From Macrostomum lignano (taxonomy: Eukaryota): a stretch of 64,000 nucleotides of DNA. Both the position numbers and the translations under genes were made by a program. Of the stretch, positions 23,501 through 52,400 are shown in pieces; the first letter of the stretch is position 1; every line of letters starts with the position of its first letter. The stretch covers positions 992,001 through 1,056,000 of the forward strand of contig NIVC01000038.1 in assembly GCA_002269645.1 (NCBI GenBank), written 5' to 3'. The notes below the pieces were generated by a model. The model ran no database searches. It was not told where the DNA came from and worked only from the letters and a program-made list of their open reading frames with translations.

Positions 23501-23693
23501 CGTCATCCGCGCCGAGGCCTACTGTCCGGAGCCGGTGCAGGAGGTGCTGCTACTTACGTTGCAGGCACCCTACCGGCGGGGACAGGCGAAGACTCGGCGC
23601 TACGTCGACTGTCTGCTGGCTGACGCCGGCGCCCCGGAATCTGCCGGCGGTGCGGCTTTTGTTCGCGCCCAAGCTTTGAAGCGCGCCATCTGA
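20577..23693 (+). pseudogene. RTE APE-RT ORF, inactivated (TGA at 22893-22895; YADD changed to YAYD)
   Basis: VGTLNCRTL, IALQE, GDLNA, LDHVLV, SDHR (APE); PGPDE-like LGPDE, QNGFR, FVDFRKAFDSV, GVLQGDTLAPFLF (RT). The same frame continues after the stop. Confidence 0.9.
20578..20643 (+). ncRNA. HDV-like self-cleaving ribozyme core (P1 5' strand not identified)
   Basis: P2 TGCCGC(20578-83)/GCGGCA(20638-43); P3 ACC/GGT around L3 TCCTCGT; GG(20604-05) for P1.1; P4 GCCGC/GCGGC; J4/2 GGCCAAAT. Confidence 0.65.
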
Positions 23694-28800: not shown

Positions 28801-31800
28801 TTTTAATGAAGTAAACTGAGCAATAGCGCGAATAGTCGTCAATAAATGTGACAAAATACTTTGATCCTCCAATTGACGTAGTTTGCATGGGACCGCACAC
28901 GTCACTGTGAATTAGACCCAATAGTTCAGTTGACCTTGACGCTTCACCCTTGGCAAATGGCGTTCGATGTAGCTTTCCTTCCACACATGCTGTGCAGAAA
29001 CTGATGCCTTCAGTTTTTACGTCATCCTTGCTAAGCTCAATTCCGTCCACTTGCTTTCCATTAATTAGAGATTTCAGGTCTTGCTCACCTAGGTGTCCAT
29101 AATGCTGATGCCATAGGTCGATGCTGTTGTTTCTCGCGACAGATGCAGTCTCGTTAGTTAGGTTAAAGCCTTTCAATTTGTACAGTCTGCCAACTTTCAA
29201 AGCTTCTCCAACAATCTTACCAGTTACGCTCAAAATCTGACACTTGTCGTCGCTGAATTGTACACTGAAGCCTTTTCTTGTAACTGCTGATACTGAGAAC
29301 AAATTCTGTTCCATAAGTGGTACATATAGAACGTCGCTCAGCTCGCACAATTTCTTACCAGAACCAGTATTGATATACAACCGAACGGTTCCCTTTCCAG
29401 TGGCTTCGAGCTTATGTCTATCTGCTAGCGAAATGTTCTCCAGTACCGAAAAATCTTCAAATTTCTCAAAATTTGTCCGATCATTAGTCATATGATTCGT
29501 TGCGCCTCTGTCCACAATCCATGTACTAGACTCGTTAGCTGTCGATGATGTGCCCATAGACAACGCCGGAAATGCAGAATCTTCCTCATCTGAAGCTGAA
29601 AAGTCCTTTAAGCCTTTTGCTGGGGCGTCTGCAATCCTCGCCTGATGCCTTCTGTTAGATTTCTTCAAATCCTGTGCACGTGGTCTTGAATTTGTGCTCG
29701 ATCCACCTGTCACAGAGAGGCTATTCTTGAATTTGTAACAGTGCTTCTTTAGGTGACCAGGCTTATTGCAGAAAAACATACTTTTGGTCTGACACTCTGG
29801 TGCTGTTGCTTGTTGAATCCAACCAGAGCCTTTGAATTGCTGCTAGGTTCACAGCTTTCCTGTTCAAGTCGTTTTGACTCCTCGTGCAAAAGCCGCTCGA
29901 GTACGAAATTCATCGTCAAGTCGTCCGCTCGCGATTCCAGGGCAGTAATCAACCCGTCATATGACTTCGGCAAACTGTTTAACAAAATCGTGACTTGATA
30001 GTCCTCGGGAACACCTGCTCCGATAGCCGACAGTCGTTTGACCATATCCTTGAACTGATTAACATGCTCCTGCATGGATGCACCTTCCACCATCTTGAGC
30101 GCTTGTAGTTTCCGATTAAGAAACAATTTATTTGCCAGCGAACTCCGCTCGAAATATGCTTGAAGCTTATCCCACGCTTCCTTTGGAGTTACTGCATCCT
30201 CAATTAGATGAATTTGACTATCCGCAACAGCCAATACGATAGTCGCTAGGGCTTTGTTCGCACGCCGCTTGAACTGAACTTTGACCTCGTTGGTCGCGTC
30301 CTCAGCAAGTGTCTCTGTACCATCAACAACTTCCCAAAGTTCTCGCTCCATCAGGACGTTCTTCATCTTGAACTTCCAGACAGTGTAGTTGGAACTATCC
30401 AACTTCTCAACCAGTAGTTTGGCATCGAAAGACATCGTGTCGATCCACCAGCACAACTGGACTGCTGAGCTTGAACTTTCTAAGAGACGGTAGAGCCTGA
30501 CAATCACGCCGACTGACGCACTGCCACTGAAGCAGCTTTATTGTTCACACTGCAGTAGATCACAGTGGAGGGGCGCAGGGCCCATAACCTATTAAGAAAG
30601 CCTTGTTAAGTTATAATGATTCGGCGTTTATTGAGTTTTGAGAAAGACAGCAAAAAAGGGGTTAACATGTAATTTAGCACTGGCGTAGCTCAAACAAAAC
30701 TTAGTGGTACAGGTAAGGGAGTCGAAGACCATAGATATAATTAAGAAGTATGTTATAGAAAATTCTAGAAGGAAAACTTGGATTCACTTACTATAAATAT
30801 AAAGTTGACTATTTTAAGATAAACGATTACTTATAACATCTTTAACACTCCCACTTAATGTTTAGCTTAAAAACTAATGCATACTGGTACAAACAGTTCA
30901 TATTGTGTCTTGAATATCAAAGTTAGATAAAGAGTTAGCAGTTATTAGCGAACAGGAATCAGTTCCTTGAGCACTTGAAACTTGGCATTAGACAGTGCTT
31001 TAGTAAGAATGTCAGCGATCATCTCCTCTGACGGACAGTAAATTAGCTTTAAAGTTCCACCGACCAACTTCTCACGCACGAAATGGTGACGGATATCAAT
31101 GTGCTTAGAACGACTGTGGAAGACAGGATTCCTAGCTAGAGCAATACAGCCTTGATTGTTTTCTAGGATAGTAACGCATTTGAGACTTTCTACGCGAAGA
31201 TCTAGTAGTAATTGTTGTAACCATGTGGCTTCTTGGGTAGCAGCTGAGAGTGCCATGTACTCGGCCTCCGTCGTCGATAGGGCTACAGTTTGTTGCTTCT
31301 TGCTACTCCAGCTAATCGGACATTCAGCCAACTTGAAGATGTACCCGGTTGTAGAACGTCGGTCATTGTGATCTCCAGCCCAGTCTGCATCGGAATATCC
31401 AATTAGATCGATTGCACGCGAGTCCTGAAAAACCAATCCGGATGAAATGGTTCCCTTTAGATATCTCAGGACACGCTTCACGCCACTCCAATGCTGTTCA
31501 GTTGGGTCTGAGCAATATCGCGCGAGAACTCCCACTGCAGATGACACATCTGGTCGTGTAGCTAGTGCTGCATAGTTTAGACTTCCTACTGCCGCCTGAT
31601 ACATAGTCTTGTCCACCTTAGCATCACAGGTCTGTGCAGTGTAGAACTTGACACTTGTGTCCATTGGTGTTGATACCGGTTTGCAGTCCATCATGTTGAA
31701 TTTAGAAAGGATGGTATTTAGATACCGCTCTTGGTTTAGAAACAATGAACCATTCTTCCAGGTAGCTTGAATTCCAAGAAAATAGTGAAATTCGCCTAGA

Positions 31801-34800
31801 TCCTTCATTTTAAATTTAGATTGCAGTTCTTGCTTCAGCACGGGCATGTATTCGTCAGATGCTGTTAATAGAATGTCGTCCACATACACACCGATCGCAG
31901 ATTGAGAGTTAGCATAGATACACGGTTCTGACTTTGCCTGCACTAGGTTAAGACTTAAAAGTTCATCATGTAGAGTTTGATTCCAACATCTAGGAGCCTG
32001 CTTGAGTCCATATAGACTTTTTTCTAGTTTGCATGCTAGTGTTTCCTTGCCTTGAACCACAAATCCTTCCGGTTGTTCCATGTAAATTTCTTCGTCTAGT
32101 TTGCCGTTTAAAAATGCTGTTACGACATCCATCTGGTGAATTTTCCAATCTCGTTGAATTCCAACAGCCAGTAGAGTTCTAATTGATGTAAATCGAGCTA
32201 CTGGTGCATACGTCTCCTCATAATCTACTCCATACTCTTGAGAGTATCCTTTGACTACCAATCTTGCTTTGAATCTGTCTACTGAGTTGTCTGCCTTATA
32301 CTTGACACGAAATACCCACTTACAGCCAATAGTTTGACGTCCTTTTGGTAGCTCAACCAGTTTCCATGTCCTGTTCTCCATCAGTGACTCGTACTCGGCG
32401 TTCGCAGCCTCTTGCCAGTCTTTTGAGAATGAGCTGTCCAATGCTTGCTGTAGAGTTTTCGGTTCGTCAATTTGTGTTGCAACGGATGCCATGTACCTGT
32501 CAACGGGCTTCTTCTCTCGAGTTGATCTCCGAACTTCTTGCTTGTCGACAGTTTCAGGAACACATTTGAAATCAGACGATGCTGGTTCGGTACCTGCATT
32601 CAGTTGAAGTGTCTCCTGCTTCTCCACTAATTGCTTCACGAAGCACGACTCTTGGAACGTTACATCGCGACTGACGAAAACTGATCGTGTTTGGAAATCA
32701 AAACAACGATATCCTTTTGAGGTTTCCGAGTATCCAATAAACCTGACTTCCCGAGCTTTTGAGTCAAACTTGTGACGTTTCTCAGCTGGGACATGCGCGT
32801 AGGCAACGCATCCAAATATTCGCAAATGCTGAACACTCGGCTTGCTGCCGGTCCAAATTTGATATGGTGTCGCTTTGTTGACTGCACTCGTTATTGATCG
32901 ATTACGCAGATATGCTGCCGTAGAGATTGCTTCTGCCCAGAATTCCTTGCCAATATGAGCATGTGCAATCATTGTTCGTGCTGCCTCCACCAAGGTTCGG
33001 TTCATTCTCTCGGCTACTCCGTTCTGTTCAGGAGACTGTGGGACAGTAGTCTGGTGAATGATTCCGTTTCGGGCACAAAATGCCTCAAATTCTCCTGATG
33101 TATACTCTCCACCATTGTCAGTCCGAAGAATCTTGATAGACTTGTCTGTTTGATTCGTGACGAGAGCCTGAAAGATCTTGAATTTTTCTAAGACTTCTGA
33201 CTTACTTTTAATGAAGTAAACTGAGCAATAGCGCGAATAGTCGTCAATAAATGTGACAAAATACTTTGATCCTCCAATTGACGTAGTTTGCATGGGACCG
33301 CACACGTCACTGTGAATTAGACCCAATAGTTCAGTTGACCTTGACGCTTCACCCTTGGCAAATGGCGTTCGATGTAGCTTTCCTTCCACACATGCTGTGC
33401 AGAAACTGATGCCTTCAGTTTTTACGTCATCCTTGCTAAGCTCAATTCCGTCCACTTGCTTTCCATTAATTAGAGATTTCAGGTCTTGCTCACCTAGGTG
33501 TCCATAATGCTGATGCCATAGGTCGATGCTGTTGTTTCTCGCGACAGATGCAGTCTCGTTAGTTAGGTTAAAGCCTTTCAATTTGTACAGTCTGCCAACT
33601 TTCAAAGCTTCTCCAACAATCTTACCAGTTACGCTCAAAATCTGACACTTGTCGTCGCTGAATTGTACACTGAAGCCTTTTCTTGTAACTGCTGATACTG
33701 AGAACAAATTCTGTTCCATAAGTGGTACATATAGAACGTCGCTCAGCTCGCACAATTTCTTACCAGAACCAGTATTGATATACAACCGAACGGTTCCCTT
33801 TCCAGTGGCTTCGAGCTTATGTCTATCTGCTAGCGAAATGTTCTCCAGTACCGAAAAATCTTCAAATTTCTCAAAATTTGTCCGATCATTAGTCATATGA
33901 TTCGTTGCGCCTCTGTCCACAATCCATGTACTAGACTCGTTAGCTGTCGATGATGTGCCCATAGACAACGCCGGAAATGCAGAATCTTCCTCATCTGAAG
34001 CTGAAAAGTCCTTTAAGCCTTTTGCTGGGGCGTCTGCAATCCTCGCCTGATGCCTTCTGTTAGATTTCTTCAAATCCTGTGCACGTGGTCTTGAATTTGT
34101 GCTCGATCCACCTGTCACAGAGAGGCTATTCTTGAATTTGTAACAGTGCTTCTTTAGGTGACCAGGCTTATTGCAGAAAAACATACTTTTGGTCTGACAC
34201 TCTGGTGCTGTTGCTTGTTGAATCCAACCAGAGCCTTTGAATTGCTGCTAGGTTCACAGCTTTCCTGTTCAAGTCGTTTTGACTCCTCGTGCAAAAGCCG
34301 CTCGAGTACGAAATTCATCGTCAAGTCGTCCGCTCGCGATTCCAGGGCAGTAATCAACCCGTCATATGACTTCGGCAAACTGTTTAACAAAATCGTGACT
34401 TGATAGTCCTCGGGAACACCTGCTCCGATAGCCGACAGTCGTTTGACCATATCCTTGAACTGATTAACATGCTCCTGCATGGATGCACCTTCCACCATCT
34501 TGAGCGCTTGTAGTTTCCGATTAAGAAACAATTTATTTGCCAGCGAACTCCGCTCGAAATATGCTTGAAGCTTATCCCACGCTTCCTTTGGAGTTACTGC
34601 ATCCTCAATTAGATGAATTTGACTATCCGCAACAGCCAATACGATAGTCGCTAGGGCTTTGTTCGCACGCCGCTTGAACTGAACTTTGACCTCGTTGGTC
34701 GCGTCCTCAGCAAGTGTCTCTGTACCATCAACAACTTCCCAAAGTTCTCGCTCCATCAGGACGTTCTTCATCTTGAACTTCCAGACAGTGTAGTTGGAAC

Positions 34801-35996
34801 TATCCAACTTCTCAACCAGTAGTTTGGCATCGAAAGACATCGTGTCGATCCACCAGCACAACTGGACTGCTGAGCTTGAACTTTCTAAGAGACGGTAGAG
34901 CCTGACAATCACGCCGACTGACGCACTGCCACTGAAGCAGCTTTATTGTTCACACTGCAGTAGATCACAGTGGAGGGGCGCAGGGCCCATAACCTATTAA
35001 GAAAGCCTTGTTAAGTTATAATGAATCGGCGTTTATTGAGTTTTGAGAAAGATAGCAAAAAAGGGGTTAACATGTAATTTAGCACTGGCGTAGCTCAAAC
35101 AAAACTTAGTGGTACAGGTAAGGGAGTCGAAGACCATAGATATAATTAAGAAGTATGTTATAGAAAATTCTAGAAGGAAAACTTGGATTCACTTACTATA
35201 AATATAAAGTTGACTATTTTAAGATAAACGATTACTTATAACATCTTTAACAGTAGCGCCAGGCCGACCTGACCAAAGCACGCCCATGCAGCAGCAATCG
35301 TGTGGGGCTCAAGTCAACCAGCCGCCTGACGGAGAACTGCTCAACCTGCTAGGCAGTCTGGGCAGCTCCCTACAGGAGGAACCCGGCGAGGACTTGTTGC
35401 CTCCAATCCAAGATCTGATGGGGGAGCAGGTCTCGCAGCTCGCGCAACCGCCGGCCCTACTCAATCCGAGGGAGGACGCTCTACGCACGCCGCCTCCTCC
35501 CGTTGCATCGCCGCCAGCGTTTCACCTGGGACTTCTTACGCCGCCGCCTCAGCCGGACGCGATTAACCTAGACGACATTCCGACGCCGCCTACGCCGCTG
35601 ACGCCTCGTTTCCGACACCCATCGCCTCCAAGGCTGTTCTCTCGCTCCGAGTTAGCCAGCGCAATTAGTGCGGCCTTTAAGGCCAGGCCGCAGCACGTCG
35701 ACGCAAGCACCCAGATCGATCATCGGACTAGTGTCAGCAAAGAGTCGATCGACCTCCTCACTGACCTGCTTGGGAAAGCTGGATCGAAGGGACAACTGAC
35801 CCGGAAGTGGCCGGTGAAGGTGCGCGACGATTTCCTGGCGGCTACCGTCGAAGCTCGGCGACAGGCCATCGCCGAAGTGGCCCGTCGCACCGTCGCTGCC
35901 CTACCGTCGCCGCCTCCGCATTCTACGAGCTACGTCTCTGGAACTGGCAATTTTAAAAATGTTGTTCTTCTTGGGCCACGCTGCCCAAGTCCCTGA
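25808..35996 (+). CDS. Extra ORF3 of the Gypsy element (25808-26184 joined to 35258-35996, about 371 aa), split by the copia insertion
   Basis: Removing 26185-35257 gives the in-frame junction SQGV-APGRPDQSTPMQQQ. Starts 2 nt after the pol-tail stop. Arg-rich N-terminus, Pro-rich middle, no hydrophobic stretch. Confidence 0.7.
26185..26442 (-). repeat. copia LTR A (3' LTR)
   Basis: TGTTAAAG...CTTAATA on the minus strand; PPT adjacent. Confidence 0.95.
26540..30435 (-). CDS. copia gag-pol copy 1 (frameshift at the knuckle; protease DSG changed to DRG)
   Basis: gag from ATG 30435 (KLDSSNYTVWKFKMK); CNKPGHLKKHC; WIVDRGAT; HSDVCGP, LRTDNGGEY, NGVAERMNR (IN); YVDDILL (RT); YSDADWAG (RH). Confidence 0.92.
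30590..30847 (-). repeat. copia LTR B (shared middle LTR)
   Basis: PPT on one side and PBS on the other. Confidence 0.95.
30945..34840 (-). CDS. copia gag-pol copy 2 (translation identical to copy 1)
   Basis: All ORF-track translations repeat exactly at +4405. Confidence 0.92.
34995..35252 (-). repeat. copia LTR C (5' LTR)
   Basis: Followed on the minus strand by PBS GGTTATGGGCCC, the Drosophila-copia-type half-tRNA-iMet primer site. Confidence 0.95.
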
Positions 35997-36427
35997 CGAA
36001 TTGAGCCACTTCGTACGGTATTAACAATTAGCAAAACTCCAGGACAGTTAAGTCAACCATTTATTCATCAAACACCATTAAATAAGTGAAACTTTAAATA
36101 ACATTTGTAATTCATATGCATCAAAAATAATAATCAAAAATATTCATCTCTCCAATCATACACTGCTCTAAAACAATCTGCAATTAATACTGTATGCAAT
36201 TCGTGTTGCCTTCGCCGTAGTACACCATCTATTTGACTGGCGCGCAATGTTTTTCCTTTCTTTTCTAGCCAACCTTTTGCCAATAAATAACTAATAATTC
36301 TGTGAGGCCTTGTTAGAGCCAAAGTGTTTTTGTTAAATAAATTGAATCATCGTTCCGCTGCTACAATTCTATTTGGACGGGGAGAGTGTAGTGACTGGCT
36401 GCTAACTGGCTATTCAGCAGCAGTAGT

Positions 36428-37830
36428 ATGAGTTTATGCAACTCTGCCGCACTTGCACTGCGGAGATAGGCGGTAATGTAAAAGGATAGGAGGGCTGAGA
36501 TAGCCAATGGAAATAAGGGGCGTGGGGTGGGTGTGCGATTGGCTGGGCGGCGCGGGTGGTGAAACGCTTATGCAACTCTGCCGCACTGGGAGGGGCAGGT
36601 AGCAAAGCAAAGCAAAGAATTGGAAGGTTTTTGGAATAGCAGAGTAAACAAATTAAAGCAAGGTAGGCGTGGCGTGGAAACTTCCACCTCAATTTTGTGC
36701 CTGGCCTACGCAACTCCTCAGCATCCTCCACTGTGCTTATTGTATAGCAATGCCTATGCAACTCTGAGCGGAGAGAGGCTCCGTCCGCTCTTGAGTGTCT
36801 GCCTCTGGCGCACTGGCATTGATAATAAATGGGTAATAAACTTTGTAACGGGTGCGGGGGCTTGAGTGGAAAGGGTAGGGTTTGGAGTGGAGGTGAGGTT
36901 GTTGGTGGGCTCTAAAACAGTTGTTCAACTCTGCCGCACTTTCACTGTGCAGGGACAGAGAGTTGAGCTCTAAAACAGTTGTTCAACTCTGCCGCACTTT
37001 CACTGTGTAGGGACAGAGAGTTGAGCTCTAAAACAGTTGTTCAACTCTGCCGCACTTTCACTGAGGAGATAGGCGGTTATGTAAAAGGATAGGAGGGCGT
37101 AAAAGAGCCAGCTGAGATAGCCAATGGAAATAAGGGGCGTGGGGTGGGTGTGATTGGCTGGGTGGTGAAACGTTTATGCAACTCTGCCGCACTGGTGGAG
37201 GCAGGTAGCAAAGCAAAGAATTGGAAGGTTTTGGAATAGCAGAGTAAACAAATTCAAAACAAGGTAGGCATGGCGTGGAAACGTCCACCTCAATTTTGTG
37301 CCTGGCCTACGCAACTCCTCGGCGTCCCCCACTGTGCTTATCCTATAGCATGCCTATGCAACTCTGCCGCACTATTTGTCAGTGCGGAGTGAAATAGATA
37401 AGAGAGGCTCTGGTCTTCCTGAATGTCTGCCTCTGGCAATTTTAATAAATGGGCAATAAACTTTGTAATGGGTGCGGGGCTTGAGTGGAAAGGGTAGGGT
37501 TTGAAGTGGAGGTGAGGTTGGTGAGCTCTAAGTTGTTCAACTCTGCCGCACTTTCACTGTGCAGGGACAGAGAGGTGAGCTCTAAAAACAGTTGTTCAAC
37601 TCTGCCGCACTTTCACTGTGCAGGGACAGAGAGGTGAGCTCTAAAAACAGTTGTTCAACTCTGCCGCACTTTCACTGTGCAGGGACAGAGAGGTGAGCTC
37701 TAAAAACAGTTGTTCAACTCTGCCGCACTTTCACTGTGCAGGGACAGAGAGGTGAGCTCTAAAACAGTTGTTCAACTCTCTTTCACTGTGCAGGGACAGA
37801 GAGGTGAGCTCTAAAACAGTTATTCAACTC
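36428..37830. repeat. Maverick subterminal repeats: two ~500-bp direct repeats plus 59-bp tandem units
   Basis: 36428-36940 matches about 37060-37540; the 59-bp unit CTCTAAAAACAGTTGTTCAACTCTGCCGCACTTTCACTGTGCAGGGACAGAGAGGTGAG is repeated. Confidence 0.85.
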
Positions 37831-37859
37831 TAGTGGTGAAACGCATATGCAATTCTGCC

Positions 37860-38132: not shown

Positions 38133-38897
38133 ACTCTGCCGCACTTGCACTGCGGAGATAGGAGGGCCTTGGTAGTATAGAGCCCTATGGCATCGGGTTT
38201 GAAAGTGGGATGGGGGCAATCCGAGAGGAGGGGGTTAGGCGTTGTATGGGTCTGAGGTTGGTTAAGCAATGGCGCAGGCCTACACACCTATGTCCCTCCC
38301 CCCCTCCCCATTGTGTACTGAGAGAGATAAGGGGCTAGGCAGAGCTGTGGTTAGTTCAAGTCTTGCCGGCGGTGTAAAGAGAAAAATATAGATTACACAG
38401 GTATGAAAATCGGAAGGGTTGGATGATACAGTGTTCGGATCATAAAAGCTAGTTGGGGCTCACGACGCTCTCACTGCTAGGCTCTTCCGTTGATCTCAGT
38501 TTTTAGACTGTATAGGCGGTTTATGGTACAGAACGAAGCCCAATGAATATAAAGTAAATATTGTGGGAAATTTTATTAGATATAGGTCTGGGGTCTACTA
38601 AGCACAAAGTTTGTTATTGCGCCAGAATAATGTCGGCGTGTACGAGTATTATTATTATTCTAGTCTACCACAACAACTGCGCTGTGTATACCGTTCTTGG
38701 AAAGAAAATTAGGGAGGGGGTTCGATTGGTCGGTTTGAGGAAGAACTGGATTGGGGTTGGTGGGGAACAAATAATGATGTACATTTAATGGGGATTGGAG
38801 GGTACTGTATTCAGTGGTCAGTGTTCCGCAAATTGTATACATATAAATGAAGTGAAAAATAACTGCAGTCTTCCGAATTCTCACTTCCGCCGCAACA

Positions 38898-39911
38898 ATG
38901 AAGAAGATAAGCGACTCATGTGCTACCTTTGAAGTCTGCCTAACTTGCAACAAGTGCGTTGTTGGATTTTTAAAGCCTGGCCATCACAAAGAGTGCAACA
39001 AGAGCACTTTCAACGTTTGCTGGCAGTGTGGCGTTGTAATGAAGCGTGGAGGAAAAGCGGGAAAATTCAAAGCTCACCGCGGGCATCAGCAGCTGCCTAC
39101 TGGAGACAATGGAATAAAAAATTTAAGACGCATAGTTATGCAGAAAGCGCATCAAATAGCCGGAGAGCAAACCGCTGCACGAAAGGCTCTCAGCCATTAA
39201 TAAACGGTGTAATTAGAGACGGCTGTAGCAGCGATGATGACTTTGTTGAGCAGCCGCAACAGTCACAATTCCAACGCCCACTCGCTGCTCAGTCGGCTGG
39301 ACATCCCCCGGATATCAGAGGAAAGCAGATCCGCATGGACAGTCCGGACAGCCTTCTGTACGAAGAGCCAACCGATGAGGAGACTGAGGACAGCGACATT
39401 GCTATCAACAATGAGCAGCCTCCCAGCATCAGCGAGCAGCAGCAGCAGCAGCAGCAGCCTCCAGGCATCGGCGAGCAGCCTCCTAGCATCAGCGAGCAGC
39501 AGCAGCCTCCAGGCATTGGCGAGCAGCCTCCTAGCATCAGCGAGCAGCAACAGCAGCCTCCCAGCATCAGCGAGCAGCAGCAGCAGCCTCCAGGCATCGG
39601 CGAGCAGCAACAGCAGCCTCCAGCATCAGCGAGCAGCAGCAGCAGCCTCCAGGCATCGGCGAGCAGCAACAGCAGCCTCCCAGCATCAGCAGCCTCCAGG
39701 CATCGGCGAGCAGCAACAGCAGCCTCCCAGCATCAGCGAGCAGCAGCAGCAGCCTCCAGGCATCGGCGAGCAGCTTTCAAGCATCAACAACATTGGTGAA
39801 CAGATTGCTCAGCCAAACATTATTGAAGAACCGGCTGGATTGGATTCCCTGATGGAGGTATTGGGAGACGGGGAATTTGAGGCTGCTAACAATGTCGTAC
39901 CTCGATACTAA
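38898..39911 (+). CDS. Cys/His-rich small ORF followed by frameshifted acidic and Gln-rich repetitive ORF(s), probably Maverick accessory gene(s)
   Basis: ATG 38898; CLTC...HHKEC...CWQC...HRGH; then SSDDDFVEQ, EEPTDEETEDSD and PPSISEQQQ repeats in shifted frames. Confidence 0.45.
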
Positions 39912-40565
39912 CTGCAACTTGTGCTGCCACCAGTAATTGGAGCAGGATACATTGTAAAAATTGAAAATGACAGCATTATTTTTGTGTCTCGTTGAGCAAG
40001 CGAATTCTTGGTCACTTGGTCATTCTTGGCTATTGTGTATCTTAAAAATTCAGTTTAACTTAAATTTTTTACTTTAATTTGTACTTCAGCTTTTATTTTG
40101 ATTTACAATAAGCCAAGAAATGTTTTTTTTAAATCAATAGCGATTATAGCAAAGCTAGATAGAATATTTCGAGCAACATAGCTTTTAGTAGTATCAATCT
40201 ACAATTAAATAAGCCAATCATGTAATTGTTGACTCAAATATGAATTCAAGTTTCTGAATTAATATTTCGGGTGTTTAAAAAATAGGTTTAAAACTTTTGC
40301 CGTGCTATCTCTGTGGCCGTCGCCATCCAGAAGCTCCTCAACTGACGAGCGCCGAGCAACAGCGATTTCGACCATCTACGAGTATCTGACTTTTGCATGT
40401 GTCACTCAATTTCTACAATTGATGCAGCTTTAATGTCTGAATTTAAAGTTACTTTTTGGCAATTTCTAGAAAGTTACTACTCGTACTTTTTGCGTAATGG
40501 AATTTGGTGTTTGATGGTCAACTGATTTTAGTCATATTGATTTCTTTGAAATTTTGTTGTTGTTG

Positions 40566-40568
<3 letters not shown>

Positions 40569-40610
<42 letters not shown>
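40569..40610. repeat. (TG)n microsatellite
   Basis: Simple dinucleotide run. Confidence 0.95.
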
Positions 40611-40614
<4 letters not shown>

Positions 40615-41012
40615 GCTATTCATTGGTGGTGGTTGCTTTTCTATATTACGTTATTTTTCTGTATTAGTGCGTACTTTTCTAATTTGTGGCTGTAATATTA
40701 TTTATCAAATTGCTATTCCAACCATCTGTGCATGAAAATGTTAGTTAATGATCATGTTTTGCTAATGTCCATTGTTTTAAACAAAATATGCTTTTTTATT
40801 CATGAGCCAAATTGCTTCACTGTGTGTGTTAGCATTTTCATTTTCTTTCTTTTCCTATTTTTCTTTTACTAGTAGTACCAATTTCGCTGTGTGTAGCAGT
40901 TTGCTGACAATTTTTAGCATCTTTTTATCCAAATAAAACTAGTAAACAAGACAGATTAAAATTCTACTGTTAAATTTTTGTCGGAAGATTAAAGACGGAT
41001 AATTCTTGTGCT

Positions 41013-41594
41013 TTATTTTAGTTGCATAAGTGTGTTAACAGAGCGAAACAGGGAAGAACTGTCGGATTTTAGCATCCGCAGAGATTTCGCCCCACTTAGA
41101 ATATAAGAGGCATTATGGAAAAGCAAGCATTTACAATACTTAAGTTGACAAACTAAAGCTGAAAATGTTTCTGGTTCATACTGGGCTTTGGGCAATACTT
41201 TAACAAGCTCATTAAGCGGTAGCGCATTTTTAAGCTTAAATCGTCCATGAGCAGTAATAGTTTTAATTCGAACACAAATTGTTTGATGAGGCAGCAGTTG
41301 AGCCGGCACTCTCCGATGTAGCATAGCCACGAAGCGAAGGGCAGCCCTTTTGGCGTCTGCGTGGGTCTTGGCACCACAGATGCTCAGTTGCCCAGTAGGG
41401 TAGAGTAGCAGAGTCACTCTGGGACTTCGCATCCGCTTGATGAGCACCCGGGGCCAGACGGGCCGGTAGATCACATGAGCCATGCTGAGAGCCAGTTCCC
41501 GTAGAGGTAGCTGAGCGCCCCTGCCACCATCCAGCCTCAGATCTACTCCGCCAACCAGATTGGTCACTCTTAGGGCTGTAGCGGGTGGGCTCAT
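41013..41594 (-). CDS. TBP-like: Divergent TATA-binding-protein (TBP)-like protein, 193 aa, intronless, inside the Maverick gene block
   Basis: Two TBP repeats: RVTNLVG...LRELAL...IYRPVWPRVLIKRMRSPRVTLLLYPTGQLSICGAK and IKTITAHG...LPLNELV...YEPETFSALVCQL...CLLFHNASYILSGAK. These parallel the TBP NIV..., YNPKRF...LIFSSGK...TGAK and YEPELF...LIFVSGK...TGAK motifs. Confidence 0.85.
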   Translation of the reverse strand: MSPPATALRVTNLVGGVDLRLDGGRGAQLPLRELALSMAHVIYRPVWPRVLIKRMRSPRVTLLLYPTGQLSICGAKTHADAKRAALRFVAMLHRRVPAQLLPHQTICVRIKTITAHGRFKLKNALPLNELVKVLPKAQYEPETFSALVCQLKYCKCLLFHNASYILSGAKSLRMLKSDSSSLFRSVNTLMQLK

Positions 41595-41689
41595 TTCGAT
41601 CGTCAACTTCTTCACCAAATCTGCTTCTGCCAACTTTACTGCTCGTGTGCCACGGACACTTCTCGCTTCTTAAGTTGATGCAGAACTTT

Positions 41690-42114
41690 GGCTTAAGCCA
41701 ACTGTAGTGCAGCAATGAATTTCTCACTGCACAACCAGTATCTGAATCTTCAATTGAGGGTGCTCCCAAATCTTCTAGGTTATAAACCTGTCTACCAAGC
41801 AGCTCAGTCAGGAAAATAGACTTCCTTTCCCCATTTGTCCAGATCGGACCACTGGCAATGCTCAGAATGTCTTCCGCCAGTTCCATGTACGGACGGGTTC
41901 CATCATTCCACTTAAACTGGTGCAGACTCCTTGATAGCTGTCTGTAGCAAACTCGCATGTCAGGGGAGACTCTCTCCCATGGATACGGAGGTGCGTACAC
42001 ATGGTGAGCAATTCGGTAGCTTCCCGCTCCGACTTGAACAACTGCCAACTCCTTCACAACAAATTTTTTGCTTGTGCTGTTGCACGGAAATCCTTGGAAG
42101 TCAATGTAGTTCAT
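41690..42114 (-). CDS. Maverick-type DEDD-exonuclease-like ORF
   Basis: MNYIDFQGF...FVVKELAV...HHVYAPPYPW...LHQFKWNDG...Y...IWTNGERK...L...VYNLEDLG...CAVRNS. The pattern resembles a conserved invertebrate Maverick ORF (recognised by eye). Confidence 0.55.
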
Positions 42115-42143
42115 GATGCAGCTTTCCTTCGAAAAATTCGGAG

Positions 42144-42857
42144 TCAATCCACCTTCTTATATACTTTTCTTCCGGGCAGTTTCAGCCAGGCTGTGTTGCT
42201 CCCGTACCCCTTGACTAGACTCTTCTGTTCTTTCTCCAGTTCACCCCCTCTGCTGGTTGCCATTTTATTTTTAACTGATTTACCAACAGCAGAAAGCGGA
42301 ACATTAAGCTTTTTCTGCTGCAGAAAATCGATGAACTCGTTCCACCCAACTGGTTCACGCTCACATGGCGAATCCCTCACCGCGTGTTGAATCAAGTCCA
42401 GTATATTTGAGGAAGGGATTGACCACCTCCCCATTTTCACAAACTCGAATCAGCTCTGGACTGGTGGACAGGATCGTCCACAGACTGCGAGCCCTGGTTT
42501 TGAATCATTTCATGGTTTGTTCATTTTGCTTCTTCTTCTTTACCAGCTTAAGCAGAATCGGGAGTATTTTAATGAAACCAGCCTTCAACAAGTCTATCTT
42601 TCTTCTTTTGTGAGTAATTTTTCCAATATCTCTTTTGACTTTGCAAGAACAGCTTTTTCATCGAGCGAAAACGATAGATTGTTTTGTAAGAGATTATGGC
42701 AGGCCTCGACAAGAAAATAACGCACTTCTTTTGGACAATTTTTTATCAACAGCCGCTTGAAGCGCACGGTATATTTAGGTGACGCAAGAACCGCAAAAAG
42801 ACTTGCATGTGAATCAAGCACTTCCATAGCGTTGAAAACAATAGCTGATAAAAACAA
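42144..42857 (-). pseudogene. Frameshifted conserved Maverick small ORFs (PW/PZ-type)
   Basis: FLVEACHNLLQNNLSF...LAKSKEILEKL...LLKAGFIKILPILL, then ARSLWTIL...NGEV...IPSSNILDLIQH...PVGWNEF...LNVPLSAVG. Confidence 0.5.
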
Positions 42858-42868
42858 GCTTCACTTTC

Positions 42869-43515
42869 TTAAGCAAATACAAGATGAGGTCGCTGGTTGG
42901 GCAAAATTCTGGCCCGCACTCGCAGCTCATCGGGAGTTGATGGGTGAAAGTCTAGGAACAGGTAAGCTCCCCTGTTCTGCGCGGTCACGTGCTTGAACAC
43001 TGACAGCAGAAAGCCGGGCTTCTCTGTAAAGCACTGCCTGCCCAGTGCTGCAATCTGCAGCTGGTCTCTGGGGTTTTTCAAGATAGCTAAGTACATTACA
43101 TTCAAGCTCATTGTTCGCGACTATTTTCCCTTGAAAAATATATTCTGAGTCAGCATCACCAAGAAGCACGGCAAGTGATGTGCGATTCCTGTGAAAAAAT
43201 TCGCATTGAAGCAGAATTTGAGGTTCCCTCTATTAAGTCATCGAAAACAACCAGGTCATTGGGCCTAAGTGCTGCCTCGATGTTGGTGGGAAATCCCTGG
43301 CGCAGCTGCACACCTAGGCTGCTCAGTTCTGCATGCCCTGCCTGTGAGATCCCATAGTACCACAGAACTCTACCAGGCTTCACATCAAACATGGCGTCTT
43401 TGTACTGGATCAGGTGTTTGACAAAGGTTGTTTTTCCTGCATTGGTGGGCCCGCAGACAATCATGCAGCTTCCCTGCCTGAGGCGGATATCGTAGCAAAC
43501 TCGCTTTTCTCCCAT
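42869..43515 (-). CDS. A32/FtsK-like DNA packaging ATPase (frameshifted near 43170)
   Basis: Walker A GPTNAGKT; Walker B LVVFDD; C-terminal SLNVMYLAILKNPRDQLQI...YLFLDFHPSTPDELRVR. Confidence 0.85.
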
Positions 43516-43538
43516 GTTTAATGCATAAATATTAGAAA

Positions 43539-44009
43539 TCACGGACATCTTTTTCTTAAGTTGGCTTCAAACCTCTGTAAGATTCTATCATTCAAATGAT
43601 TTTTTTCATTAGCATGCAAATGCTTCAAAATCCCCTCAAATGACCGATTGAACAGAAACTTTTGATAAGCAAAATAGATGCAAAACATTCCGCATTTATT
43701 AGAGTTAGCACATTGAAATCTGTTTAGATTGCTTCGGAGCCAAAAGCCAGTTGTTTTAATCTCTCGAAACAAATTATAAACCAAAGATAAAATTTCAGGT
43801 TCCCAGCCGAGGGAGTTGAACAACTCAATGCGATTTCCTTGCCCAGCATAGCACACCACCCAGTGACCAAATGAGCCATTGTGCTGAAGTAGGACAAAAA
43901 CAAACTTGTTTTCAAAGGAAATTGATGATCTAAATTTTTTTACATTCAAGGGCAGAGAATTTTTATAGCGCAAATGTAAAGTAACTATGAGAAATTTTTG
44001 GTAAGGCAA
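43539..44009 (-). CDS. Adenain-like cysteine protease
   Basis: GHW...LFNSLG...FQCANSNKCGMFC (His, Asp/Asn, Gln...Cys arrangement). Confidence 0.8.
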   Translation of the reverse strand: MPYQKFLIVTLHLRYKNSLPLNVKKFRSSISFENKFVFVLLQHNGSFGHWVVCYAGQGNRIELFNSLGWEPEILSLVYNLFREIKTTGFWLRSNLNRFQCANSNKCGMFCIYFAYQKFLFNRSFEGILKHLHANEKNHLNDRILQRFEANLRKRCP

Positions 44010-44053
44010 AAATTTTCTGGCGAGATTAAGTAGTTAAATTGCATCCATGTCAA

Positions 44054-45330
44054 TTAAGATGAATAGTCCAGCAAAAGCTCTCGGTGCTTGGTGACCTCAA
44101 TCAGCGAGTCATACAGGCACATAGCAATCAGGGACACCGCTTCATTCAGTGCCTGTTGAAGCGAATCTCCAGCCGCAGGTTGCCCTCCTTCTGTCCGTAC
44201 CACAGAGCCGCTCCCTCTGGTGTGAGATCGAATGCAAACACCGTGTTGTTGTTGGAGAAGAGCTGGTAGGGGATCCACGGGACCGAATTGCTTGCAGATT
44301 GACAGCTTTTCATGTAGTGCAAGTATTCTCTTACAAAGGAATTGTTTTCAGGTGTGAAGGCGCCGTGGCACACGGTCTCTCCACCTTTCTTTAGAGCCAA
44401 CCGGCTGAGGTTGAAGCTCTGGAACTGGAACGGGCTCGCGTGATGATGACCGTTGAATGCTCGGTGGCTCACGAAGGCCAGCATGATGAACTCCGGCAAT
44501 TTTCCATGAGTGAATCCTTCAATGTTTTTAGATTGAATGCCCTGGGGTAGGATGAAGTTCTGCATTTCAGTTCGCTCGATGGGATACAGTGCATTTTGGT
44601 TTGTTAGCCCCTGCTCGTGGGCCAGGGTGATGTGGGGCACCACTTTGACTCGGCGAAGATGCAGAATGCTGTGAGAGATTTCCATGCGGTATGCCACGTT
44701 GTTTGCATTCGGGGTTCTGATGGCAAAAGCCCCGTCGCTGGGCACCAGTTTGATGTGCAAGTGCAGATTGCTTAGCAGAAACACTGGGCACTGGAAAACA
44801 TCGCTGAAGAGCGGCCCCGCATACTCCATCCATCGGGATTCCCTGTGGCTCTCCGTGTGCTTTTCAGCTGCAGAGTCCGGCTCCAGGAAGCCAGCAGGGT
44901 AAAGTTTTAGTTGCTGGCCATCAGATGAGCTCATTAGTGCTTTGAAGGACGCATGGTAGGGATAGAGCTGGTCTCCACCAGACACCACTCGCTGGTTAAT
45001 GCTCACAATTACATCTGAGAAGACTGTAGACAGAACAAAGTTTTCTGGGTGCACATCACTGTCTCTGCGTTCGGTGATGATGCCATCTCCATCTCGAACA
45101 TCCTCCCTCAGCAAACCCCCATCCAGTCTCACAAGGCGGCAGCGAATATAAAGAAAAGAATTTAGCAGATCTGTGTATTCATCGGCAGATTGGTGGCAGT
45201 CAAATTCAATGGGGGAGTTTGCAGCAATGGAATTAACTGGGTGAATATCAACACAAGTAGCTTTTTCAATGCAGGTTTGTAGAACGGGCGTCTTAAATAA
45301 ATCAAGTCGGGGATTGAATCCGTAAGCCAT
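44054..45330 (-). CDS. Major capsid protein (PY/hexon, double jelly-roll), frameshift near the C-terminus
   Basis: LDLFKTPVLQT...IHPVNS...PIEF...YTDLLNSFLYIRC...FSDV...YPY...P.FI.LAFVS..AFNG...SPFQFQ...AFDLTP...LRLEIRF, continuing LIAMCLYDSLIEVTKHRELLLDY in the next frame. Confidence 0.85.
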
Positions 45331-45332
45331 GT

Positions 45333-45830
45333 CTATGACAGAGAGTCGAGCACGCGTTTCACAGTTTTCTTGCTGACTTTACGCTTTCGCTTTCCTCCGC
45401 CTGCTGCATTCTTCTTTGCTTTCGTCTTCCTATTCTTAAGCTTTTTTCCCACTAGCCTTGCTCGACCTCTTATTGCGATTTCCACCAGTTGCCTTTCGGG
45501 TGTGCTTCTTCTTCTTACCAAGGTGGCAGCAACCCTACCAAGTCGAGGCTAACGTTTTAGGTTCATTTTCAGGCAAATCTATAGGTAGTACAACGGTGCT
45601 ATCTAGCTTCTTCAGGAGCAGCGGGTTTTATTTTCCAGGAACATCTTCAAGAACCCGAGAAGGAGAAGTACTTTAAAAGCATCGCCGCCTGGCACCGAGC
45701 GGTATGGTATGCCCTACAAAGTATCCACCAGTCCGGCTGGGCGTATATCAACAGGCGCAGCTACGCTTCGAAGTATGCTGGATGGCTGCAGACCTCGGCT
45801 GGCCTGTAGAAAATAGTCTGCCCTGGGAGT
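45333..45830 (-). pseudogene. Degraded basic/core-protein-like ORF upstream of MCP
   Basis: Lys/Arg-rich tail (45333..45521) and an upstream FSGFLKMF/PLLLKK amphipathic fragment with frameshifts. Confidence 0.35.
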
Positions 45831-46494
45831 TCGCTATGAACTAAGTAACTATTACTTTATTATATATATTTGACTCGATTTAATTTTGCTACTTGCAACT
45901 TTGAATATTTCACTAGTACGAAATATTGCATATCTTCATGATAATTCGCTTAAATACTCGTGCTCATACTAATATGTATATTCTGCTCATATGCTTGTTT
46001 TTCTTAAATGCTCATGCTCATGCTAATATGTACATATCTTGCTTACATGCTTATTCGACCTATTTAGCTCTAAACTTGTGCTTATCATTGTTATCTATGC
46101 TCATACTTATTCACTCAATTATATTTTGCTCATCGTTGCTCACGTAGGCTATATTTATCCATGCTCATCGTGCTTGCCCCTCAATTGTATGCTCACTAAT
46201 ATTTTTATACTTACCCCTTGCTTATGCGCATGCTCGACATACTACTTGTAATACTCTTTTAACTTTTTCTTACGCATATATTTATTCGAAAAATTTAAAT
46301 AGGGAAGCCAGTTGGTATAGGGCTAAAGCTTAATAATTCGTATTACTGGTAGTAGTTAACTTTGAACATTTTATTCCAGCCAATTAGGGAATTTCTCCCT
46401 GTTTTGTTTTAATCCTATATTTTTATTTCTGTTATAAATTCGCTAATTTTGTTTGAGTGAATGTCACCCAATAAAAAATGTTTGCCTTAATTTT

Positions 46495-47000
46495 TACTTC
46501 ATAAAAAATGAAGTAAGTTGGCCCGAAAATAAAAGTAACCTGTTCTCAACCGTTTCCTCATTGCTGAGAAGCTCTTGGTAGAAACAAACTTGAAGTTTGG
46601 CTAAGAATTATCTCGTTATTTCTTTCTGGAACAGGTAGAACTTGAGGTCGTGGAGACCCAGTATAGGAGTCTGGAATAGGGAGAACTTGAGATTGTGGAG
46701 ACCCAGAATAGGAGCCTAGTAGGGAGAATTAGAGGTAGTGCAGACCCTAAGAAAGCCGTGAGGCTAATAACAGAGATTAGGCGCTAAGAAATTAGGCATT
46801 AGGGGGGGGCTATCGCTGAACACCCTTGATCCCCGGAAAACGCAAGACTTTCGGACTTAGTTAGGAAATTAGACAGTGTCTTACCGCTCGGGCACTAAAC
46901 GCTATCACGAGGCTTCTAAGAAAACCGCGTGAACTAGGAATTTCTAAGAAAGAATCATAGCTTGGGGCAGCCAAAGCTACTTAGAGTAGATAGAAAATTC
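46495..47000 (-). pseudogene. Possible relic of the Gypsy extra-ORF family
   Basis: PQSQVLPIP...PRPQVLPVP repeats and a terminal LFSGQLTSFFMK weakly resembling LIGQLKGYLYR / LIGQLKIYLMR; many TAA/TAG stops. Confidence 0.3.
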
Positions 47001-47617
47001 GGTGACCAATTGGTGGAATTTTAGCTAGGAGCAAATAAGGGCCGTTACAACTTGGTGGCTTTCAGTGGGATCTTTTAGCGAAGAACGATTAAAGCTGTTA
47101 CAATTTCGGTGTTTAAGATGTTGTGAGTAGCATCTTTTCAACAGCGGGGTGTCATTTGTAAGCGAGTTATACAAACGTTAAAAGTACAAAGGTATCTTAC
47201 AACTAGACAACACTAAGTTATCCTAATGGAAATCTTGTTCCATTATCTGATTTGCAAACCATATTCGCATCATGCTATCTTGCGAATTTTAGATTCCTAC
47301 AGGTTTCCTACAGACCGGATAACACACAGTTATCTTGATTGAAATCTTGTATTGTTATCGGATTTTCAAACAAGATTCAAGACATGTTATCTTGTGAAAT
47401 CCAGATAACTCACCAGATAACAGTCAAACCAGATAACACTAAATTACCTGGTGACGAATCTGGTGGTTTCACCAGTTCTGCACCCCTAACAAGAAAATCG
47501 GTAGTTAATATGACAAGATTCAAAAATTATCTTGTGGTGTTATCTGGTTTATTTACCAGAGGGTTGCTAATGCAAAGGCGCCACCAGTCGGCGACACCCG
47601 GAGAAGAGGCTGTCCCT

Positions 47618-49419: not shown

Positions 49420-52400
49420 GTATCTCCCAGACCGCAAGCAATAACATCCCCCCAAGTAGCAAGCACCTCCCCCGTCTGACTCTCTTAGACGGGCCGCTTG
49501 ATGGTGGTGTGTTAAACTGAGAGGCAAACCTGAGTGTGGCGCTGGCAGACCAGTCAGCTGTTACTTGGTGGTCGTGTAGGTAAGGCCCCAGCCACCTCAG
49601 GATGGTGAAACTATGCTATGTTGAGGCAGAAGCATGGTCGAAGCCTGGATGACTGTTCAGTAATGGCGGCTGGATGCCGGGGGGCTCCAGTTCGAAAAAT
49701 GGCTCCATTACCGGGGAAACCTGGTAGAGGTTGAACATTACTGATCAGGATACTAGGCTAAATCTCTGCTTCTAGTGTGGATGATTGTGAGGATTGTTCT
49801 GCCTTCGGATTGGGTGGCCCCCCGCACCTGGTTCGGTCTGGTGGTTCGATTCTCACCGGAGGGGACCTCGCTCCTTGGGTGCGCCCTTGGGTCGGGAGAA
49901 CCTTCATGTTCGGATTGAAACACGGACCAGGATAGGGCCTGCACGCGCTATGGTTGGGTGCGGCTCGAACTTTAACATACTTTTATCTAGCTGGTCTCCG
50001 CTCAGGCGGGTCCGGGTTTCGATTCGGATGTTGATGATCGCAGGAGGGTAAAGGTGTGAAGGTGGATCTGGCTTGCTGGTGAAGCTGTAGCACTCACCCG
50101 TCTGACAGTGTTGGTGCCTCCAAGTGGCCTAAGTCGGGCAACGGTGCGTTCGAGTGCGATGTATATTAGAATTTCCAATTTTTTTTGTATATTAATTTTT
50201 TACACTATGTTAACCTTTTAATTTTAACTCTAATTTCTGTTAATTATTACCTTTTATATTTCTCATTACTGTTATTATTACTTACATAGTATTCGGGCGT
50301 ACTGGCTAAATCCCTCTGTCTAATCAGCTAGTTCCACATGCTCCGAAGACTACTAAGAAAAATTCGAACTCGGCCAAAGCCGAGTCGCAGGGTGACACCT
50401 GCACCTCCCCGAAAGGGGGTCAGGGTGCCAGTTGGAGCTGTTCGGATTGTGAGAGTGTTTTCCACCAAGACCGGGCTTGGAGTCCACCGTAGGGCTCGGC
50501 ACCAGAGTAGTTTCCTTCAGCAATGTGAGGAAGTTGAGAAGCAGAGTAAGAGAAGATGGACGGATGAGGAGAGGCATATCCTAGCAAGAGCTGAGGCAGG
50601 GTTTAGCGAGCTGAGGCAGGAATTAACGACTTACTAGTAGCTGCAAATATTCTTCCGGGTAGGACTAAGGAGAGTATTAAAGGGGCCAGAAAGGCGGCAG
50701 CGTATAAGCTTTTGGTTGAAAAGTTTAGAGAGAATCGTAGTTCTGAGTTTGAGGGCCGGGATGGCAGTGCTGAGACTAGGGACGTGGAGGGGAGCTCAGC
50801 AAGTAAGAATAGTTGTGAAAGTGAGAGTAGCATCGAGAGTGAGTCTAATCCTAACTACAAAACCCAAAAAACTAATATAAAGTGCAGGAAAAAACAAAAA
50901 AGATGATACAGTAGTTATTGCAGGCTCGTCCTCCTCCATGGGGTCCGGGGCTTGCTCTTTAAGGTTGGCAGGTATCCCGGAGGTGGAGTCCGAGGGGTTG
51001 AGTAAAGCTGAGGAAGAAGCTCGTAGAGGTATTAATAGAAAAGCGATTAAGTGGGTTCTAGAGATTGGGTCGGTGAATGGCTTTGAGAAGCAGTGTAGCG
51101 AGATTGGAACAGTAATTGTTGAGGAAAGATGGGCTGAGTGTAGTGAGCTTATTGAGGCATGTTTTCTGAGTTATAGTGAGGAGAAGAGCAGCGCCAAGAG
51201 ACCAGTTAGAAAGAAGGCAGTTAAGAGAGAGCTTAAAAACAGAGAGAAGCGTAGAAGAGCTTACGGTGAGATGCAGCGAATTTATAGTAAGGATAGGAAG
51301 AAAGCAGCAGCTGCGGTGTTTAGTGGCGCGTGGAGACTGTGGAGTGAGCCTAGAGAGGAGAATAGACAGTTTAAAGAGCGCAAGATGGAGTACTGGAATG
51401 GTGTTTTCAGTAGGGAGTCTGACCCGGATGGCCGTCCGGTCAAGCCTCTGCGTGAGCCAGTTGAAGAGATTGAAGAGCCGGTTAGTTTAGCTGAGTGCAA
51501 GAAAGCGCTGAGAGATCTTAAGCAGACAGCTTCGGGGCCAGATGGCGTTAGTTGGAGCAGTGTGAAGGGCATGGGTCCAGGTTGGCTTCAGTACCTTTTT
51601 AATTCCATCTTGGCGTGCGGGTATCCAACAAAATCTTTTAAAAATTCTCGCACCGTGCTGATTCCTAAAACCGAGAAACCTAGTGACCCGGGTGAGTTTA
51701 GGCCTTTGGCGATAGCTAGTGTCTTTGGCAGAGTCTTTCATAGAATTTTAGCTAGTAGATTGGGAGTCTGGGCACCGTTAGGGGAAAGTCAGAGAGCGTT
51801 TCAGGTGGGTATTGATGGGGTGTCGATGAACCATCTCATCTTGGAGGCGGCTCTAGCGGCGGCTAGGAGGGGAGACAGTGAGCTTTATTTAGCTTGGTTA
51901 GATCTTAGTAAGGCCTTCGATTCGGTGAACCATCAATCTTTGCTTCGTGCAGCTCGTCGTGCAGGCTTGCCTGAGTCCACCTTGGGCTACTTGGGTAACT
52001 TGTATGACGGGGCGGTAACCGATGTTAACGGGGTTGAAATTAAGATTAGCAAGGGGGTTAAGCAGGGGGATCCTCTATCACCTATTTTATTCTGCTGTGA
52101 TAGATGAGCTAATTGACAATCTAGATAGTGGTATTGGGTTCCCGTTAGCTGGGAATAGAGTCAACGCGGCAGCCTTTGCCGACGACTTGGCTCTCCTGTC
52201 TAGGTCTAAAGCCGGATTGCAAGCACTCTTGGCTAGCTTGGCTGACTCGCTTCTCCCTACTGGGCTTGAGGTGAACCCGGCTAAGTGTTCCACGCTTGCT
52301 ATCATTTGGGACGGTAAGAATAAGCGATGGCTTCATGATGCCAAGGAGCAATTCAAGTTTAGGGGGTCTACTCTGCCGGCACTTGGGGTTGAAGAGTCGT

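Follow-up and report, generated by a model that had tools for sequence, protein, structure and literature searches.

Mavericks of the flatworm Macrostomum lignano carry a TATA-binding protein (TBP)-like gene that is real, element-encoded and conserved; viral TBP-like factors are known and have barely been described in Mavericks. The gene was noticed in a 64,000-nt stretch of genomic DNA (hereafter, the window) and is fixed in two Maverick families, A (that of the window) and B, which are 33-39% identical. By analogy with the TBP-like proteins of herpesviruses (vTBPs), we assign a probability of roughly 0.5 to the reading that the element protein is a late-gene initiation factor that recruits host TFIIB and RNA polymerase II (Pol II). 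An earlier note on this DNA had proposed a private TBP with altered specificity, which is still the best reading; it gains a candidate binding site, a box with a TAAG core, and loses the promoter that the note had suggested, a TATATATAA tract, because that tract lies outside the element. The proposal bears on the timing of Maverick capsid genes and on whether virions form without a helper, and the combination of a bare TBP core, a candidate box and many intact copies in a laboratory flatworm makes it directly testable. If true, the element would offer a minimal counterpart of the herpesvirus vTBPs that arose independently.

The element protein has a TBP fold and an altered DNA face

The 193-aa ORF reads from ATG to stop on the minus strand, and Pfam and a structural model agree that it holds both TBP repeats, as the earlier note had claimed. 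Pfam matched it to TBP (PF00352) in two stretches (E 2e-20, 72.9 bits), and a search of PDB sequences gave 35 matches, every one a TBP or TBP fusion. An AlphaFold2 model from a 16-sequence alignment (pLDDT 85) forms the full TBP saddle, with its two direct repeats, and the fold comparison that the note had called for gave a clear match: TM 0.75-0.79 against 44 PDB TBP chains and Z 15.6-19, with the next fold at Z 7.9. The absence of the N-terminal extension and the co-orientation of the gene behind the capsid, protease, ATPase and DEDD ORFs were also borne out. Two further remarks are true and tell us little: the gene is intact while its neighbours are broken (the DEDD ORF is intact too, and the TBP-like gene is short), and it is intronless (host TBP and the host TRF2-like gene are each a single ORF as well).

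Profile-profile alignment to cellular TBPs places F144 and F159 at the repeat-2 Phe sites, which are kept, and Y65 at the second Phe site of repeat 1. The first Phe site of repeat 1 falls on P48, with W47 one place earlier (a one-residue shift is possible), and W47 of the window protein is His in family B. The residues read earlier from the window alone therefore hold for F144, F159, Y65 and T112, and the first repeat-1 site moves from W47 to P48. Of the symmetric Asn pair, N12 is kept and the second member is T112 in 39 of 39 distinct proteins. Because Phe sites are missing from the intercalating set of four, we classify the protein, on its sequence, as a TBP-like protein rather than a canonical TBP.

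Conservation among the 39 distinct proteins is absolute at E140, P141, E142, F144, F159, N12, V14 and Y65, and likewise at the changed DNA-face residues (P48, Y65, C73, K111, T112 and H160); the basic helix of repeat 1 is not conserved in family B. E140 and E142, in the acidic C-terminal stirrup, align with TBP glutamates that, according to text in PMC10005294, contact TFIIB. Shared with cellular and archaeal TBPs and TRFs (PF00352) are the two-repeat saddle, the YEPE-x-F stirrup, F144 and F159, and the first Asn-x-Val strand. The element protein differs from them in being only 22-28% identical, in lacking the N-terminal tail, in being encoded by a mobile element, in carrying Pro (or Trp) and Tyr where repeat 1 should have its two Phe residues, in a Thr that replaces the second Asn, and in a 6-residue insert after strand 1. 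TRF2 and Giardia TBP, which have such losses, do not bind TATA normally according to text in PMC12209930 and PMC10005294, and it is because one Phe and one Asn are lost, as in those two proteins, that rival roles stay open.

The gene belongs to Mavericks rather than to the host

The closest named homologues of the TBP-like protein are M. lignano proteins (80-89%). A genome search with the gene gave at least 152 matches (150 of 233 candidates scored), a number that is not a copy number; the assembly represents host genes about three times over. At each of the 30 best loci the DEDD-like neighbour accompanied the gene, and in 53 longer stretches, selected around TBP-like matches to span the score range, another Maverick gene was found every time (an MCP match in 47 and a pPolB match in 46). 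The host TBP and TRF2-like genes (loci L049 and L050) lie on other contigs; each reads as one open frame, of 218 and 390 aa respectively, and each occurs in three copies. The TBP-like protein is 28% identical to host TBP. A start-to-stop ORF was present at 62 of 76 loci by a motif rule, in a sample that favours the top matches and with a rule that misses some open frames. Among nine family A representatives, pairwise dN/dS for repeat 1 was 0.04-0.25 in 34 of 36 pairs, with one pair at 0.43; for repeat 2 it was 0.07-0.29 in the pairs whose synonymous sites were unsaturated. The gene is under purifying selection.

A tree of 160 proteins, for which a length filter retained 139 of 142 representative matches, joins families A and B and eight relatives in one clade (SH-aLRT 98) on a long stem that stands away from host TBP and TRF2. 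The nearest neighbours of this clade are long-branch TBPs (support 90); we draw this deeper placement open and claim no donor. The clade is narrow in databases, since a full HMMER search returned only eight proteins at E <1e-30: four Macrostomum gene models, three further relatives and one plant TBP tandem. The 26 loci recovered by a metagenome scan were generic TBPs throughout (19-29%), none of them near a Maverick gene, and viral contigs searched for TBP and MCP matched neither. One family B-like TBP relative and one MCP homologue hint, short of proof, that the linkage occurs elsewhere too.

The gene is thus multicopy, in Maverick company in every stretch read, and without the nesting, low copy number and host gene context of a host TBP or TRF2 paralogue. 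The alternative that the earlier note had set against its own claim, a recent retrocopy found at one locus, nesting with a host TBP paralogue and showing dN/dS near 1, does not describe it: this is a Maverick gene, and no retrocopy lately derived from the host.

Maverick families and the window copy

Family A elements are ~17 kb long and run in the order PC4-like, integrase, putative mCP, core, putative MCP, protease, ATPase, two unknown ORFs, DEDD-like and TBP-like, with this structural run facing pPolB. Terminal inverted repeats (TIRs), AGT ends and 6-bp target duplications are present in copies C530 and C986; the window retains the left end only. Family B (~40 matches at >=70%) has the same integrase-to-TBP run, with pPolB upstream and the PC4-like gene facing. 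The family B polymerase matches DNA_pol_B_2 (E 0.0026, below cut-off), as expected of a protein-primed PolB, and shares 44% identity with the family A polymerase across 1080 aa. Sister copies encode an integrase with rve (E 2.5e-16) and a chromodomain; the protease matches Peptidase_C5 (E 9.4e-5), and P-loop AAA matches of the ATPase are weak. For the putative MCP we found 22 homologues, a weak Capsid_N match (E 0.032) in two of 20 relatives and no PDB match; from gene position, we tentatively take it and the putative mCP to be capsid proteins. PC4-like genes (L066 8785-9549 and L034 795-1433; Pfam PC4 E 3.6e-6 and 5.6e-5), DEDD-like genes and TBP-like genes co-occur in families A and B. An element-encoded TFIIB was not found, a search giving 15 low-copy TFIIB matches only.

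A third family, C, was found via its MCP, and no TBP, DEDD or PC4 match was present in the five copies read. It (L134-L143) has its own gene order, with ORFs that we take, from their motifs, to be dUTPase-like and parvovirus-type PLA2-like. In family B (L033/L034 and L146/L147), pPolB and the PC4-like gene share upstream sequence with a TATATAA box because the TIR includes it. Beside one family A copy lies a Polinton-like capsid/ATPase cluster (L042-L043; G000:C986:297248-302822), presumably of a different Polinton-like type.

The window copy (Table 1) is dead and deleted, and could act only as a passenger. It lacks pPolB, ~5 kb that hold this gene in sister copy C986 being missing between 40253 and 40823, and a search running from the core-like ORF to 30 kb past the window end recovered no mCP, integrase, PC4 or right TIR. 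Its left end contains 11 copies of the 15-mer CAACTCTGCCGCACT (36439-37729), a unit of the TIR that is also present at the terminus of C986. The TATATATAA tract is where the earlier note had placed it, ~350 nt past the end of Maverick homology; among the Maverick loci compared, the only match of the region around it (45517-46400) is a duplicate of the same insertion, and part of this region is another interspersed repeat.

Table 1. Features of the window Maverick copy and its flank (positions in the window)
Feature	Position	Strand	Basis
Left terminus (starts AGTAGT), rearranged terminal-repeat region, 11 copies of 15-mer	36422..37831	+	sister-copy comparison
Broken accessory ORF, Cys-rich then Gln-rich	38856..40253	+	
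Element-encoded TBP-like gene, 193 aa, both repeats, intact	41013..41594	-	ATG-to-stop ORF
Recombination joint (approximate), repeat 1/repeat 2, about codons 115-118	41243..41250	-	
DEDD-like ORF, 283 aa: ~160-aa core and tail across TBP repeat 1	41263..42114	-	
CTTAAGA box ~80 nt before TBP start, inside DEDD coding sequence	41668..41674	-	
TATATAAG, canonical-looking box before DEDD gene	42156..42163	-	
Conserved ORF ~230-240 aa, broken by ~300-nt internal deletion	42144..42524	-	
CTTAAG box before ~230-240-aa ORF	42547-42552	-	
Conserved ORF ~112 aa, frameshifted	42594..42827	-	
CTTAAGA box before ~112-aa ORF	42867-42873	-	
Packaging ATPase, frameshifted	42869..43548	-	
CTTAAGA box before packaging ATPase	43554-43560	-	
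Adenovirus-type cysteine protease (Peptidase_C5), disrupted	43539..44050	-	
Putative major capsid protein, frameshifted near 3' end	44054..45330	-	
CTTAAGA box before putative MCP	45434-45440	-	
3' part of basic core-like ORF; Maverick homology ends here	45333..45516	-	
TATATATAA tract, outside element	45860..45868	-	

A TAAG-core box precedes element genes

We searched for promoter-like boxes by eye and with an unbiased k-mer count upstream of genes, using random windows as controls. TAAGAA was the top upstream 6-mer in all four family A copies (6/9, 6/8, 6/9 and 4/8 genes; family-wise p 0.021, 0.0065, 0.027 and 0.64), counts that are not independent because the copies are related. It occurs in family A at 7-10 sense versus 0-1 antisense sites, mostly as CTTAAGAA, 30-110 nt before the start, and the TBP-like gene itself is preceded by a box. 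Between two family A subfamilies, five of six box sites in coding regions are kept. Three of the coding-region boxes contain TTA, a rare Leu codon here (15 of 192), and one persists although the reading frame differs. Boxes of the TATATAAG type precede the PC4-like and left accessory genes, and also DEDD in one subfamily. CTTAAGA, found at the four gene-linked sites in Table 1 (41668, 42867, 43554 and 45434), is not enriched across the whole window (10 versus 12.6 expected).

Family B contains ATAAGAA without family-wise significance in either copy (p 0.42 and 0.94). In the TBP-less family C, TAAGCA precedes six of seven genes (p 0.003) in one copy and falls short of significance in the second, and the boxes there are TTATAAG, closer to TATA. 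Since a family without the gene has a related core, the TAAG core does not need element TBP.

Four contig sets, which we guess to be RNA, map to 39950-47300, where they cover the gene block and little of its flank, with loose ends at 41243. We rejected this coverage as evidence of expression because multicopy DNA would give the same pattern.

Proposed role of the element TBP and alternatives

As a late-gene initiation factor, element TBP would likely bind the TAAG-core box before the capsid, packaging and integrase genes, and would likely recruit host TFIIB and Pol II. The terminal genes and the DEDD gene, with their canonical-looking TATATAAG, would be started by host TBP, and the first element TBP could be made from RNA that started at the DEDD box. 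It would then read the non-canonical CTTAAGAA boxes, its own included, creating positive feedback at boxes of a type that would probably suit host TBP badly; it may be assisted by the PC4-like protein. In favour of this role are the fold, the fixed place in two families, purifying selection, the invariant stirrup, the lack of an element TFIIB, the shared upstream box and the herpesvirus parallel. Against it stand the related core in the TBP-less family, the lack of significance in family B and in one family A copy, the absence of CTTAAGA enrichment across the window, the box before the TBP-like gene itself, the lost Phe and Asn, and the basic repeat-1 helix that family B does not conserve. A fuller version of this scheme, which we advance tentatively and would not call probable, is a self-encoded early-to-late switch (TBP-like, PC4-like and DEDD/Maelstrom-like proteins) that reads a private CTTAAGAA box, with the TBP gene serving as a standing crossover for capsid and polymerase modules, so that TBPs would be chimeras in which the first half moves together with the promoters.

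The protein might instead lack specific DNA binding and act as a decoy, titrating host TFIIB or the TBP regulators Mot1, NC2 and TAF1 while host TBP reads the boxes, so that host transcription is shut down or rerouted. An invariant TFIIB stirrup beside changed DNA-facing residues in repeat 1 would suit a decoy, as would the related box in the TBP-less family, yet three of the four intercalation sites are still aromatic, and the invariance of the changed DNA-face residues in all 39 proteins suggests a constrained binding surface; we consider this role unlikely.

We give still less weight to the idea that the polymerase of a helper DNA virus reads the boxes while the TBP-like protein serves a different purpose, for instance by binding termini or single-stranded DNA in protein-primed replication. 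No helper virus is known here, and the TFIIB stirrup would have no reason for invariance. The co-inheritance of repeat 2 with pPolB in 50 of 50 copies, which might be taken to favour a replication role, follows from position alone. What speaks for it otherwise is that the TAAG core is present in all three families, that baculovirus late promoters use TAAG (text of PMC4893493) and that Giardia TBP binds single-stranded DNA (text of PMC12209930).

A TRF2-like factor, initiating through protein contacts (with TFIIB and a PC4-like partner) rather than by reading the box, is about as unlikely: F144 and F159 are kept, which the host TRF2-like protein does not do for both, and the element protein does not group with host TRF2, even though a Phe site is lost as in TRF2 and the PC4-like and DEDD-like genes accompany it in families A and B, all three being absent in C. 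Finally, a neutral passenger or recent retrocopy of host TBP, which the dead window copy and the lack of introns might bring to mind, can be dismissed at the level of the family, given the 28% identity to host TBP, the separate clade on its long stem, the low dN/dS and the same gene position in two families so divergent.

The TBP-like gene is a recombination joint

In family A, the end of pPolB was in reach in 50 of 55 copies, and in all 50 the type of repeat 2 corresponds one-to-one to the type of pPolB. There are eight repeat-2/pPolB types versus two repeat-1 types, and repeat 1 follows the structural block. The window type and the commonest type are identical at 28-30 of every 30 nt up to codon 110 and at 11-23 of 30 after it, and all eight repeat-2 types are in frame and retain the invariant residues. 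The TBP-like gene is therefore a recombination joint, at which two capsid modules pair with eight polymerase modules between its repeats. The eight repeat-2 alleles that occur naturally, set against two forms of repeat 1, show what this half of a TBP tolerates.

The DEDD reading frame is open across TBP repeat 1 (41263-41594, minus strand) for 110 codons in family A and 129 in family B, which is more than synonymous re-draws suggest by chance (p 0.004-0.04 in A and 0.01-0.02 in B). The tail of this frame has dN/dS >1 in most pairs, showing no amino-acid constraint, and the synonymous divergence of repeat 1 tracks that of the DEDD core. On these two observations we rejected the idea that repeat 1 is conserved because it encodes two proteins, and we attribute the pattern to recombination instead. 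The DEDD-like protein itself, a putative nuclease by its motif, had no Pfam, NCBIfam or PDB match (model pLDDT 37), and Maelstrom came up for its core only as an Atlas lead (0.87).

Relation to known viral TBPs and Mavericks

The probable working analogue is the vTBP of herpesviruses (EBV BcRF1, KSHV ORF24 and HCMV UL87), likewise a virus-encoded TBP-like protein with a variant box. According to text in PMC4893493, these proteins of beta- and gammaherpesviruses (BcRF1, ORF24 and UL87) read a TATT variant in late promoters with host Pol II. The vTBPs are ~10% identical to TBP and work in a six-protein viral complex, whereas the element protein consists of the TBP core with its TFIIB stirrup retained, and no homologues of the herpesvirus partner proteins were seen in the elements read. 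A variant box confined to late genes would complete the likeness; a box was found, but the TBP-less family has a related core.

Nucleocytoviricota and mirusviruses also encode a TBP fold (BFVD matches, best E 1.4e-11), and the element TBP model is closer to cellular TBP (TM 0.78) than to viral TBPs (up to 0.74). These viruses mostly carry their own RNA polymerase; unlike them, the 12-17 kb Maverick elements contain no polymerase gene that we could see. TBPs are mentioned in putative mirusvirus elements in text of PMC10675990.

With Mavericks/Polintons (adintoviruses) and the MELD viruses (PMC8502044), the M. lignano elements share pPolB, an rve integrase with chromodomain, ATPase, protease, putative capsids, AGT-repeat termini and a 6-bp target duplication. 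The earlier note had called the transcription module undescribed, which is too strong: Starrett et al. 2021 (PMC8502044; preprint 10.1101/697771) label a TBP, in a figure legend, in MELD viruses with adintovirus-like PolB. In the text seen of that paper, this TBP is a figure label only, in the section on non-animal datasets, and the text supplement contains no TBP term. The main text of PMC10748475, PMC11161782, PMC8097293, 10.64898/2026.06.19.733378 and 10.1101/2023.10.16.562556 contains no TBP or TATA term, and term searches of Polinton papers gave no promoter or transcription factor. Searches of the available literature text found nothing joining M. lignano with Mavericks or Polintons with TAAG.

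Other mobile elements in the window

The window holds several further elements. At 26184-35293, a Copia element consisting of two identical 4405-bp units and three LTR-like repeats interrupts a Ty3/gypsy element, within which a LINE (20577-23693) is also found. A 392-aa ORF of the DUF3504/tyrosine-recombinase type lies at 13346-14524 (plus strand) and is presumably Crypton-like. At 50332-53404 (plus strand) is a non-LTR retrotransposon, which we take to be R2/NeSL-like, whose RT is divided between two frames and whose C-terminus bears a CCHC and nuclease-like motif.
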